Shown piece by piece: positions 4,532 to 36,221 of a stretch of 64,000 nt of DNA. Source of the stretch: Escherichia coli (GTDB lineage Bacteria > Pseudomonadota > Gammaproteobacteria > Enterobacterales > Enterobacteriaceae). The notes under the pieces were generated by a model. It saw only the letters and a program-made list of their open reading frames with translations, was not told the origin of the DNA and did no database searches. The stretch lies in the NCBI RefSeq assembly GCF_024700885.2, contig NZ_CP117016.1. One strand, written 5' to 3'. Position numbers and translations under genes: made by a program. The first letter of the stretch is position 1. Each line of letters begins with the position of its first letter.

Positions 4532-6319
<1,788 letters not shown>

Positions 6320-32418: not shown

Positions 32419-33963
32419 TTACGCTTTTGCCTTCGGCATCTGCGAAACCAGTGACAGGCTGACGTCCATACCTTCTACCTGGAAATGCGGTACGGCGTAG
32501 AGTTTCACGCGGAAGAATCCCGGATTGTCTTCGATATCTTCCACCACCACTTTTCCGTCACGCAGCGGATGCGAGGCCTGCAGTTCATCACCCGGATCGG
32601 TCATCTCCGTCACCAGTCCCCGGATCCAGTTATTCAGCTCCAGCTCAAGCAGACGGCGATCTTTGGTGGTACCGATATTTTCCCGCTGAATGATCTTCAG
32701 GTAATGCGCAATACGGGACAGCAGGAAGATATAGGGAAGACGGGCATTAATACGACTGTTCGCCGTTGCATCCGGCGTATCGTACAGCGCCGGTTTCTGG
32801 GCGGAGTTAGCAGAGAAGAAGCAGGCATAATCCCGGTTCTTGTAGTAAGAGAGCGGAATAAAGCCCAGATTCGCGAATTCAAACTCCCGCGTTTCCGGGA
32901 TCATCACCTCTGACGGAATTTTGACCTGATTACCGGTTCCCAGATCATACAAATGGATTGGCAAATCCTGCACCGCACCACCGGCCTGAGGCCCACGGAT
33001 CTGAACACACCAGCCGTTGGTGACAAAACTGCGCACCATGTTGGCTGCAAAGGCAAAAGACGCGTTCGTCCAGAGATATTTATGGTGGTCCGGTCCTTTC
33101 ACCTCTTCAACATAGTTAAAGCTGCGGACAGGTACGGTATCCGGGCCATACGGCAGGCGTCCCAGTACACGGGGCATCACCAGGCCAATATAGCGGGCAT
33201 CGTCCGTCTCACGGAAAGCATTCCACTTGATGTACTCGGCACGCTCAAAGTGGTTGCCAATATCCTTGATGGCAGCCACCTCTTCCATGGTTTCTTTCTG
33301 GAAGAACGCCGGGCCAACTGAACCAATAAACGGCATATGTGCAGATGCCGCCACCCGGGAAATATTTTTCAGCAACGCCACGTCCTGTGCAGATGCATCA
33401 AACTCCCAGGCTGAAACCAGGGCGGCAATGGGCTCACCACCCGGCGTGTCATACTCAGCCACATAGGTCTGCAGATAAAGGCCGCTCTGAATAATTTCCG
33501 GCGCATCCTCAAAATCCTGACGCAGATCGTCTTTGGACAGATCCAGCAGCTCAATTTTCACATTACGGCGGAAGTCCGTTTTATCCACCAGGGACTTCAC
33601 GCCCCGCCACAGCGACTCCACTTTCTGAAATTCCGGATGATGAAGCACAGCATCCAGTTGACGGCTGATCTGATAATCAAGCTCTGCAATATGATGGTCA
33701 ATCAGCGCTTTATCGAGTTTTTCCACCTGCGTGCCGGCTTTTGCCAGACACTCCATAAACACCTGCATCCCTGCCGTCAGACGTTCATCTGCAGATGCTT
33801 CTGACATGGCCTGTGGATCCTGCCAGATATCCAGTGCACTCAGGGCAGATACCGGACTCAGGTTAATTTTTTCAAACAGGGAAGCATATACGCTGTCGCC
33901 GGCATGCGCTTCAGATACCACGCTCTCTGCAACGTTCTTTTCTTTCTGTACAGACATCAGCAT
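32419..33963 (-). CDS. tssC: T6SS sheath large subunit TssC (VipB)
   Basis: 514-aa ORF with typical TssC size and position after tssB. Confidence 0.85.
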   Translation of the reverse strand: MLMSVQKEKNVAESVVSEAHAGDSVYASLFEKINLSPVSALSALDIWQDPQAMSEASADERLTAGMQVFMECLAKAGTQVEKLDKALIDHHIAELDYQISRQLDAVLHHPEFQKVESLWRGVKSLVDKTDFRRNVKIELLDLSKDDLRQDFEDAPEIIQSGLYLQTYVAEYDTPGGEPIAALVSAWEFDASAQDVALLKNISRVAASAHMPFIGSVGPAFFQKETMEEVAAIKDIGNHFERAEYIKWNAFRETDDARYIGLVMPRVLGRLPYGPDTVPVRSFNYVEEVKGPDHHKYLWTNASFAFAANMVRSFVTNGWCVQIRGPQAGGAVQDLPIHLYDLGTGNQVKIPSEVMIPETREFEFANLGFIPLSYYKNRDYACFFSANSAQKPALYDTPDATANSRINARLPYIFLLSRIAHYLKIIQRENIGTTKDRRLLELELNNWIRGLVTEMTDPGDELQASHPLRDGKVVVEDIEDNPGFFRVKLYAVPHFQVEGMDVSLSLVSQMPKAKA

Positions 33964-33984
33964 TTTCTCTCGTAATCCGTTAAA

Positions 33985-34482
33985 TCACGCCTTTTCCGGC
34001 ACCAGTGCACGCAGTTCATCACGCAGCGTCTGACTCAGTGCCGGGTCACGCAGAATTTTTTCCAGCTCTTTACGGAAAGTCACGTTATCCAGCAGATTGG
34101 CTTTCAGGTCCCGCAGAAGGCTACGCATGGCCAGCATGGCTTTAAGACGGGGAATCTGTCGGGCGACCTGCTCTGGCGTGAAATCGTTCATATTGCGGAA
34201 AGTCAGGCTGATGCTCTCTTCAGAGCCATCACCGGCAAGCGTGTTCTCCACATTCAGATGTACAGACGGGGAGATATCTGCCAGAACATCATTAAAATTG
34301 TTTTTATTAATATCCGTTTTTACACGCTCTGACAGTGGACGCTCTTCCTGTCCGTTACTGAAATCACCGGCAACCAGAAGTTTGAGCGGAAGCTCCACTT
34401 TCTTCTGCCCACCACCCGTATGTAGGTCTAATTTCAGATTTACCCTTGCTTTCGGGATTTCATTCTGAAACGAACTGCTCAT
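33985..34482 (-). CDS. tssB: T6SS sheath small subunit TssB (VipA)
   Basis: From internal Met: MSSSFQNEIPKARVNLKLDLHTGGGQKKVELPLKLLVAGDF..., VipA-like; first gene of the minus-strand operon. Confidence 0.8.
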   Translation of the reverse strand: MSSSFQNEIPKARVNLKLDLHTGGGQKKVELPLKLLVAGDFSNGQEERPLSERVKTDINKNNFNDVLADISPSVHLNVENTLAGDGSEESISLTFRNMNDFTPEQVARQIPRLKAMLAMRSLLRDLKANLLDNVTFRKELEKILRDPALSQTLRDELRALVPEKA

Positions 34483-34506
34483 GGCTCTCTCCTGTGAAAC
34501 CTGCAT

Positions 34507-34988
34507 CTAAGGGGTTCCATCACCGCAGATGCCTCCCCTTGTGCACTGATTTAATTTTGATCATTATAGGACGAAGATCTGAAAAATCTCAATATGACAG
34601 ATACATCGATCGATATAACGCAAATAATCAGGACTTTATTCTATGGAATGTCGCAAAATAATGAATATTCAAAGCTTATAACCATTGTTAATGTAAAAAT
34701 ACAGAAAATTATTCCACAAAACACTTTTGATACAGCCAGTTAACATAAACACTGTATTTTCTTGATTTCAGTCATTGAAAATCACAATGAGTAAAGTTTC
34801 AGCAGCATTGACGTGATTTCTGGAAAGCGGGAAAGATATGGAGGAAGGGCCCAACAAAATGCAATGAAAGAAGGAGTGAGGGGATTTCTAGTAAAAACAG
34901 AAGATTAACAAAACACATCAGGAGGCAGAGACTCCTGATTCAGTGCTACCACATGAAAATTTAGTTAACTGTTACCGTTCTGAAATCT
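34507..34988 (-). promoter_or_regulatory. AT-rich control region upstream of tssB (T6SS promoter region), divergent from a small plus-strand ORF
   Basis: ~480 bp without ORFs, very AT-rich, directly upstream of the first T6SS gene; no specific promoter elements assigned. Confidence 0.4.
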
Positions 34989-35180
34989 ATGTCAGAAGAT
35001 ATTCCATTACCGAAAATCAATCAGCGATACAGAGACGATCATGGTGCGCTTGTCACCGTGACCAGTGTTGAGGAAACCCGGGTGGTGTTTATGCGGGACG
35101 GCTATCCGCATCCCTGCATGCGACCGATGTACAACTTCCTGGGAAAATTCAAACCCGAACCCCGGGAAGAAACAGAATAA
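34989..35180 (+). CDS. hypothetical small protein (63 aa)
   Basis: ORF track only; no recognisable motif; weak ribosome-binding site. Confidence 0.3.
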   Translation: MSEDIPLPKINQRYRDDHGALVTVTSVEETRVVFMRDGYPHPCMRPMYNFLGKFKPEPREETE

Positions 35181-35232
35181 AACGAAATCCCTGCCGGCAA
35201 TCACATTGCCTGATGGCAGCATAATCCACTTA

Positions 35233-35466
35233 TTAATTCTCATCCCCGGAGACAAGCCCTGAAAACCACTCCGGGTGTTCACTGTATGCTGTGTTCAGCG
35301 CATCCCAGGAAACGTTGATATAAAAGCTGTCCTGCAATTTCCGGGTAACCACCTCTGCCAGGCGGTTCCGGTTACCCACCAGTCCGGCATAACCTCTCTC
35401 TGCCAGCCACTCATTCAGTTCATGTTCCAGAGACAGATTGATAATATCGTAATCGGACCTTGCCAT
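35233..35466 (-). CDS. hypothetical small protein (~77 aa from internal Met MARSDYD)
   Basis: ORF track 35233..35541; likely start at internal ATG. Confidence 0.3.
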   Translation of the reverse strand: MARSDYDIINLSLEHELNEWLAERGYAGLVGNRNRLAEVVTRKLQDSFYINVSWDALNTAYSEHPEWFSGLVSGDEN

Positions 35467-35561
35467 TCCCGTTTCCTTAGCACATGTTTTCAGGCACGGG
35501 GATAAAGTATAAAGAATGTCGTACTGCTGCTGCCAGAGCAATATTCCCCCTGATGGTTGTA

Positions 35562-36221
35562 TCAGAGATGGTATGCCGGTACTTTGCGGGTTGTTCCTGT
35601 CAGGTTATCGTGCACCTCCACGGTCGTGGTCACCACCGGCATTCCGGCCTTTCTCAGCCTCAGAACATCAGCCGCAATACGCTGACTGCCAAACCAGAAC
35701 AGGCCGTCCAGTGCAGTCACCAGTAAACCCGCCTCCAGTGCATACTTCAGCCGTTCACGGGGCGCTTTCACTTCCCGGGCAACCTGCTGATATGGCAATG
35801 ATGTGTTTTCATTCCCAACCACGCGACGAATACGATGAGACAGATGATACCGGAATGTATCCGGCACACCAGAAAGGCTGGCCTTCAGGCTGTACACGCA
35901 GCCAAACCGTTTATCGTTAAACACCACATTTTTCTGGCTGATTCCCCATTCTTCACGCAGCGCAGCAATCAGTTGTGGTGTACGGGTAAGCAACAAGCGA
36001 AAAGGCAGTTCAAAACTGGTGACGTAATCCACATTCAGCAGTGCAATACGCAGCCGTTCTTCTGGCCCGGCCTCTGTCTGCCGGCACTCCTCCAGAACAT
36101 CCTGCCACTGCTGGCGAAGACGGGGCGATTCGTTCCGTTCTGTAAAACAGTATTTATCCGCCAGATAGTCAATTTGTGTACGCATACTGAAGAGCATTCC
36201 GTATAAAGATTCAGCTGACAA
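35562..36221 (-). CDS. hypothetical protein, 219 aa (prophage-like)
   Basis: ORF track; no motif recognised. Confidence 0.4.
   Translation of the reverse strand: MSAESLYGMLFSMRTQIDYLADKYCFTERNESPRLRQQWQDVLEECRQTEAGPEERLRIALLNVDYVTSFELPFRLLLTRTPQLIAALREEWGISQKNVVFNDKRFGCVYSLKASLSGVPDTFRYHLSHRIRRVVGNENTSLPYQQVAREVKAPRERLKYALEAGLLVTALDGLFWFGSQRIAADVLRLRKAGMPVVTTTVEVHDNLTGTTRKVPAYHL

Follow-up and report, generated by a model that had tools for sequence, protein, structure and literature searches.

The AT-rich intergenic region upstream of tssB in the window, by which we mean the whole 64,000-nucleotide stretch of Escherichia coli DNA analysed here, is very probably (at a rough probability of 93%) Psci1, which serves the Sci1 (T6SS-1) gene cluster both as its sigma-70 promoter and as a Fur/Dam epigenetic switch. 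Psci1 is already known and is among the best-characterised T6SS control regions; it was described in enteroaggregative E. coli (EAEC) 17-2, ahead of sciH (= tssB), in work published in 2011 (Brunet 2011, PMC3145626) and extended in 2026 (Taillefer 2026, PMC13262931). The first-pass annotation had placed a control region of a T6SS operon here, and this proposal is borne out, with the same elements present in the same arrangement as in the published Psci1. What it missed is what sets the region apart, a trio of Dam GATC sites and the epigenetic switching by Fur and Dam, and the reading is corrected to one of Fur and Dam acting on a sigma-70 promoter, not a sigma-54 promoter.

The intergenic gap and its flanking genes

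The gap upstream of tssB extends from 34483 to 34988 (506 bp). To its left, on the minus strand, is tssB (sciH, 33985–34482; TIGR03358, E = 1.4e-49), the first gene of a sci1-type T6SS cluster in which the order after Psci1 is tssB, tssC, tssK, tssL, an OmpA-family gene, hcp and tssH; the same tssB CDS is annotated by RefSeq in a 100% identical genome. To its right, transcribed divergently on the plus strand, is a 63-residue DUF4222 gene (34989–35180; PF13973, E = 5e-23). The tssB start codon is the ATG at 34482, as in both RefSeq and the published work, and is preceded by the Shine-Dalgarno sequence AGGAGAG at 34487–34493. An in-frame ATG at 34506, 24 nt upstream of this start, is the source of the boundary previously placed at 34507, such that of the interval first proposed (34507–34988, ∼480 bp) the right end stands and the left end moves to 34483.

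The GC content of the gap is 36.6%, compared to 51.0% for the 64-kb window, with a minimum of 28% at 34600–34799. Only 3.6% of the 506-nt windows in the stretch are as GC-low as the gap, and there are five comparably AT-rich stretches elsewhere in it; the AT-richness is thus genuine, though not extreme. The description of the region as AT-rich, ORF-free and divergent from a small plus-strand ORF was correct, the DUF4222 gene being real and the gap containing no conserved ORF. RefSeq annotates no ORF inside the gap, and none of its ORFs is conserved across the ten alleles compared.

Three small ORFs were considered and rejected, with reference in part to homologous loci (cdi-type loci, described below) in which cdi genes lie downstream in place of tssB. 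First, the longest in the gap, a 49-residue plus-strand ORF at 34594–34743, is not maintained in five of nine homologous loci; it looked as if it was kept in one cdi-type locus, with about 55% amino acid identity as counted by eye, which is near the level of neutral drift, and in most alleles the frame is broken or its start is lost. Secondly, a hydrophobic minus-strand ORF at 34799–34918 varies in its length and C-terminus, has no well-spaced Shine-Dalgarno sequence as judged by eye, and is most simply read as a side effect of the richness of that strand in pyrimidines. Thirdly, a 26-residue upstream ORF preceding the DUF4222 gene occurs in cdi-type alleles only. An Rfam scan of positions 33500–36000 (E up to 1) gave nothing in the gap, its sole match being a chance snoRNA inside tssC. 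Inside the 3′ end of the DUF4222 gene there is a terminator-like hairpin on the minus strand (35154–35166; CCCGGGGTTCGGG followed by a T-run), which probably terminates the convergent small gene at 35233–35472.

Identity with Psci1 and the sigma-70 elements

The correspondence with the published promoter is apparent at several levels. The cloning primers Promsci1-5 and Promsci1-3 (PMC3145626) match the window with 0 mismatches, at 35024–35048 and 34465–34491 respectively. The published fragment, from −578 to +18, corresponds to 35060–34465 and is 596 bp long; the window interval has the same length, and there are therefore no indels. This fragment runs 72 bp into the DUF4222 gene and takes in a distal GATC at 35037–35040; the papers treat the upstream 578 bp as non-coding, whereas in RefSeq the DUF4222 gene starts 506 bp upstream. 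Compared to an EAEC-lineage O104:H4 genome, the 506-bp gap is collinear and identical at 503 of its 506 positions (99.4%).

A sigma-70 scan places a −10 hexamer, TATAAT, at 34563–34568 and a −35 hexamer, TTGAGA, at 34587–34592, both on the minus strand with an 18-nt spacer, about 75–110 nt upstream of the tssB ATG. The combination TTGAGA-18-TATAAT (34592–34563) is the only sigma-70 match of at least 11/12 on either strand of the 64-kb window, although the promoter scan overall is not enriched relative to shuffled sequence (2 found, 2.0 expected), and the −10 and −35 of Psci1 are termed ‘putative’ in the published work. From the position of the −10, transcription of tssB would start near 34556, giving a 5′ UTR of about 74 nt (34483–34556, minus strand) that is the T6SS-specific part of the gap. 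We considered whether this UTR is structured, there being AAGGGG/CCCCTT and GCATCT/AGATGC stems visible by eye, and rejected this, its predicted fold being no stabler than that of shuffled sequence (z = −0.66). Mutations reported in a preprint (10.1101/2025.02.08.637259) fall among these elements: a 34-bp deletion covering the −10 abolishes T6SS activity, and expression is lowered when the A lying 13 bp upstream of the tssB start codon is changed to T; the equivalent position in the window, 34495, also has A in the sense orientation.

Fur boxes and Dam methylation sites

Two Fur boxes are present on the minus strand. The proximal box (fur1 or F1, 34550–34568), with the sequence TATAATGATCAAAATTAAA, overlaps the −10, contains the first GATC site and matches the Fur consensus at 13 of 19 positions, as published; the published F1/−10 oligonucleotide, TCCTATAATGATCAAAATTAAATCAG, has an exact match at 34546–34571. 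The distal box (fur2 or F2, 34614–34632) lies upstream of the −35, and the published oligonucleotide matches at 24 of 25 positions at 34611–34635. The consensus is not discriminating, and because 34 other sites in the window score at least 13/19, the boxes are not identifiable from the sequence alone; their identification rests instead on their identity to sequence that has been tested experimentally.

The single mismatch in F2 is a SNP at 34619, which on the tssB-sense strand is G in the window and A in both EAEC 17-2 and O104:H4, and the consensus match of the box is 10/19 in the window compared to 11/19 in the published allele. The other SNPs relative to O104:H4 are at 34509 and 34890. In the published work mutation of F2 makes the ON state more frequent, and the mutants kill in rich medium too (PMC13262931), and we speculate that the 34619 SNP could shift the set-point of the switch. 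One cdi-type allele, that of ETEC1703, has the same base as the window at this position.

Three GATC sites complete the arrangement. GATC-I (G1, 34559–34562) is within F1 in a BclI site (TGATCA), in agreement in both position and enzyme with Fig. S1 of PMC3145626. GATC-II (G2, 34576–34579) is 17 nt from G1, between the −35 and the −10, in a BglII/Hpy188I site (AGATCT), and GATC-III (G3, 34608–34611) is a further 32 nt away, upstream of the −35 and adjoining F2, in overlapping PvuI/BspDI sites (CGATCG/ATCGAT). The GATC positions 34559, 34576, 34608 and 35037 define fragments of 17, 32 and 429 nt, with G1–G3 spanning 53 nt; the published description is of three GATCs over 53 nt, each within a 6-nt palindrome, and of Sau3AI fragments of 17, 32 and 429 nt (PMC3145626). 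Clustering alone is not unique, with four other triple-GATC clusters within 53 nt occurring in the window. Overall, the region and EAEC 17-2 Psci1 have in common the primer sites, the F1 oligonucleotide, the places of the −35, −10, F1 and F2, the 17/32-nt GATC spacing, the distal GATC, and the flanking genes, with tssB downstream and DUF4222 upstream; they differ by the F2 SNP at 34619.

The probable Fur/Dam switch

Fur was among the regulators that the first-pass annotation proposed, and this proposal is well founded, experiments having demonstrated the dependence (PMC3145626) for a sequence whose counterpart in O104:H4 is collinear with the gap and 99.4% identical to it. The binding, methylation and heterogeneity experiments were all performed with EAEC 17-2. 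With transposon insertions in fur, or with fur deleted, sci1-lacZ is derepressed about 25-fold, and the fusion also responds to iron chelation with induction; Fur titration and gel-shift show binding to both boxes, which is tighter at the proximal one; in a gel-shift assay of SspI fragments, Fur shifted only the proximal one; and pre-bound Fur reduces the binding of RNA polymerase (all PMC3145626). Fur also blocks Dam at GATC-I, and not at GATC-II or GATC-III, both in vitro and in vivo, and methylation of GATC-I lowers the affinity of Fur (PMC3145626). Under iron limitation only a subpopulation is ON, in a state that is inherited and can also be reversed; the ON/OFF ratio is altered by point mutations made in the chromosome at F1, F2 and G1–G3, with Fur-box mutations pushing towards ON, and G3 or triple-GATC mutations locking cells OFF (PMC13262931).

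We infer from the near-identity of the sequences that the switch works likewise in this strain. When iron is plentiful, Fe-Fur would occupy F1, overlapping the −10, and F2, upstream of the −35, and would thereby exclude RNA polymerase and shield GATC-I from Dam. When iron is scarce, Fur would leave, tssB and the downstream genes would be transcribed, and Dam would methylate GATC-I; methylation would then reduce Fur affinity, such that the ON state would be stable until replication gives hemimethylated DNA. The G2, G3 and F2 sites would tune the share of ON versus OFF cells. Similar competition between a regulator and Dam at promoter-overlapping GATCs gives heritable ON/OFF states at agn43 (OxyR/Dam) and pap (Lrp/Dam); in contrast to these, the competitor at Psci1 is the iron sensor Fur, which makes the switch environment-gated and not purely stochastic. 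The switch occupies only the proximal region of roughly 150 bp (34546–34635), and the distal ∼350 bp is conserved DNA on the DUF4222 side.

Alternative regulators

T6SS clusters of Vibrio, Pseudomonas and Aeromonas are controlled by sigma-54 and enhancer-binding proteins, and this precedent, which comes from other genera only, is what favours the sigma-54-dependent promoter suggested in the first-pass annotation. A scan of 34483–34988 for the −24/−12 element (TGGCAC-N5-TTGCW) with up to two mismatches gave no match, however, and across the whole window the matches number 29 compared to 44.7 expected by chance. Moreover, the published fragment is bound by the sigma-70 holoenzyme, and there was no competition for Fur binding from a sigma-54 box that served as non-specific competitor (both PMC3145626). 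The sigma-54 reading is effectively refuted.

Silencing by H-NS is plausible from the base composition, and it could be that H-NS filaments nucleated on the AT-rich tract are the main control of this acquired T6SS, with Fur secondary. The GC content falls to 28% at 34600–34799, and A/T runs of at least 5 nt are doubled, with 20 in the gap compared to 9.5 per 506 nt in the window. There is precedent for regulation of T6SS clusters by H-NS, in E. coli EDL933, Salmonella Typhimurium and Edwardsiella, and in uropathogenic E. coli the silencing of T6SS genes by H-NS is opposed by RfaH (both cited in 10.1101/2025.02.08.637259). However, when about 20,000 random transposon clones were screened for derepressed sci1-lacZ, the only insertions recovered were in fur (PMC3145626), no site in the gap matches the high-affinity H-NS motif TCGATAAATT at 8 or more of its 10 positions, and our literature search found no paper showing H-NS acting at sci1. 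We regard H-NS as an unlikely principal regulator; because H-NS and Fur are compatible, it would be an added layer to the Fur/Dam switch and not an alternative to it.

With regard to RfaH itself, there is no ops element (GGCGGTAGnnTG) in 34483–34988, and the gap is not an RfaH/ops leader. The only exact ops (GGCGGTAGCGTG) in the window is at 28048–28059 on the minus strand, in the hcp–tssH intergenic region, which is consistent with the ‘ops1’ of the preprint 10.1101/2025.02.08.637259.

Relationship to the promoter of class IV cdiBCAI operons

Most of the gap is shared with loci that have no T6SS genes behind it. When positions 34400–35200 were used as a query, 1,365 genomes covered at least 80% of it at about 82–84% identity, and the matches that we sampled begin at about 34546 and do not include tssB. 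The common segment, 34546–34988 within the gap, travels with the DUF4222 side: in alignments of five loci, and of a core from ten sampled alleles, homology runs from beyond the DUF4222 gene through F2, G3, the −35, G2, the −10, F1 and G1, and ends at about 34546–34550. It stops immediately after the sequence ...AAATTAA(A/G)TCAG, about 10 nt past the predicted transcription start. The boundary is also seen in the identity to cdi-type loci per 30 nt, which is 57–100% from 35000 to 34551 and then 27–50%. The homologous coordinates are 34546–35200 in the window, 4990–5633 in locus L003, 4990–5668 in L006 and 13241–14140 in L012. The −10 and all three GATCs are invariant in five of five cdi-type loci, and F1 differs at one or two positions. 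Accordingly, the suggestion that the whole region is a leader of the T6SS operon is only partly upheld; positions 34483–34545 are T6SS-specific, and the other ∼440 bp, including the promoter, travels with the DUF4222 side.

Downstream of the promoter in the cdi-type loci are an ops leader, a ShlB/FhaC-family transporter (PF03865), an acyltransferase of the HlyC family (PF02794), and a filamentous haemagglutinin bearing a VENN pre-toxin motif; this is the order cdiB, cdiC and cdiA. The cargo is cdiBCAI-STEC4, a class IV system described by Halvorsen et al. 2021 (PMC8510554). The annealing part of the ZR258 forward primer for cdiBCAI-STEC4 (PMC8510554), TCAGGAGACTGAGTTTCCTGATG, matches L003 exactly, at the homologue of a hairpin at 34917–34939 in the window (see below). 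[quoted passage not shown] This ‘Pcdi’ shares about 76–83% identity with Psci1 from about 34546 to beyond DUF4222, and both promoters drive contact-dependent antibacterial weapons. They differ in the −35 (TTGCTG in Pcdi, TTGAGA in Psci1) and in the unrelated leader and cargo downstream, with an ops leader and then cdiB, cdiC and cdiA in place of tssB. The ops is about 90 nt downstream of the −10 in L003–L006 (e.g. at 4925–4936 on the minus strand of L006); most alleles carry GGCGGTAGCGTG exactly, and strain A31 has AGCGGTAGCGTG.

The junction between the promoter and the cdi leader is covered over at least 80% of its length in 1,097 of the 5,426 complete E. coli genomes, and the cdi leader with cdiB and cdiC is covered to the same extent in 192; many genomes have a cdi operon that is degraded or that insertion sequences have separated. 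The tssB region has a match of any kind in 209 of the 5,426, including O104:H4. An exact pattern comprising G2, the −10 and G1 (CAGATC-N7-TATAATGATCAAAA) had 0 matches in 100,044 species-representative genomes.

The alignments demonstrate homology at the sequence level between the promoters of the sci1 and class IV cdi loci, and this seems to be unreported; our literature search returned no paper linking the two promoters or linking Fur or GATC sites with CDI, and nothing relevant on DUF4222. Tentatively, and at slightly less than an even chance, we suggest that the Fur/Dam switch is not a T6SS invention but a portable cassette, carrying the promoter and located at the DUF4222 end of an E. coli island family, and that recombination about 10 nt past the predicted transcription start has put either the Sci1 T6SS or class IV cdiBCAI behind it, the regulatory consequence being what the homology would imply. 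On this view, iron limitation should induce class IV CDI as well, its expression should be Dam-dependent and heritably ON or OFF, and sci1 alleles without GATC-I should behave unlike the EAEC allele. The sharing of the switch module with the class IV CDI operon extends to about a fifth (∼20%) of the complete E. coli genomes. If the switch operates there as well, two mechanistically unrelated contact-dependent weapons would share one iron-gated logic of heterogeneous deployment, and the idea of ‘attenuation by heterogeneity’ proposed for the T6SS would be generalised. The loci would also provide a natural experiment, with one promoter, two cargoes, and alleles that lack GATC-I or carry the F2 SNP.

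Allelic variation and island arrangement

The switch elements are not uniformly retained among sci1-type alleles. In those of strains 2013C-3181 (L009) and 48 (L010), GATC-I and the F1 core are lost, the sequence being TATAATGGGTGAAA, and GATC-II and GATC-III are kept; the gaps of these two strains are only 73–74% identical to that of the window. By that measure, the switch elements are better retained in the cdi-type promoter than in some sci1 alleles. SLK172 (L011) has only a tssB remnant and is without GATC-II. Alleles without GATC-I or GATC-II should differ in the behaviour of a Fur/Dam switch.

Two strains are informative about the arrangement of the islands. Strain A19 (NZ_CP028756.1) has both a sci1-type tssB and a cdiB–cdiC locus, about 100 kb apart, which shows that one type of cargo does not preclude the other. 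In O157:H7 strain NE 1169-1 (L002, 4633–5846) an IS3-family element abuts the promoter and cdiB–cdiC is about 400 kb away, from which it appears that the cdi operon has been split from its promoter by an IS-mediated rearrangement.

The distal segment and the DUF4222 side

There is about an even chance that the distal segment, from about 34640 to 34988, is not T6SS control at all, and that it instead serves DUF4222 as promoter and leader, or is an island gene, so far unrecognised, for a small RNA or peptide. The segment is about 76–83% conserved in more than 1,300 genomes without tssB, always beside DUF4222, and, as described above, Fur shifts only the proximal SspI fragment (PMC3145626). Conservation is greatest in the 48 nt directly upstream of the DUF4222 start (34941–34988), which are essentially invariant: all 30 positions are identical at 34941–34970 and 27 of 30 at 34971–35000, a block that covers the first 12 nt of the DUF4222 gene, compared to 17–19 of 30 in other blocks. 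Against a promoter or a small gene in this segment, we find no match to an Rfam family, no ORF conserved across alleles, and no sigma-70 consensus on the plus strand. The DUF4222-leader reading in any case complements the identification of the gap as Psci1, and the role of the proximal 150 bp is unchanged by it.

Several smaller features of this segment are evident. The invariance of 34941–34988 spans both sci1-type and cdi-type alleles, in which the neighbouring blocks are 57–77% identical; this sequence holds an 8-bp palindrome, AGTTAACT, and no obvious Shine-Dalgarno sequence. Positions 34820–34890 are purine-rich on the plus strand, with about seven GGA motifs, and in cdi-type alleles it is the composition of the tract, not its sequence, that is kept; the tract may be part of a DUF4222 leader. 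Between these is the conserved hairpin at 34917–34939, which has an 8-bp stem followed by GTGTTTTGTT and resembles a terminator on the minus strand; it may shield Psci1 against minus-strand transcription arriving from upstream, or may belong to the DUF4222 leader.
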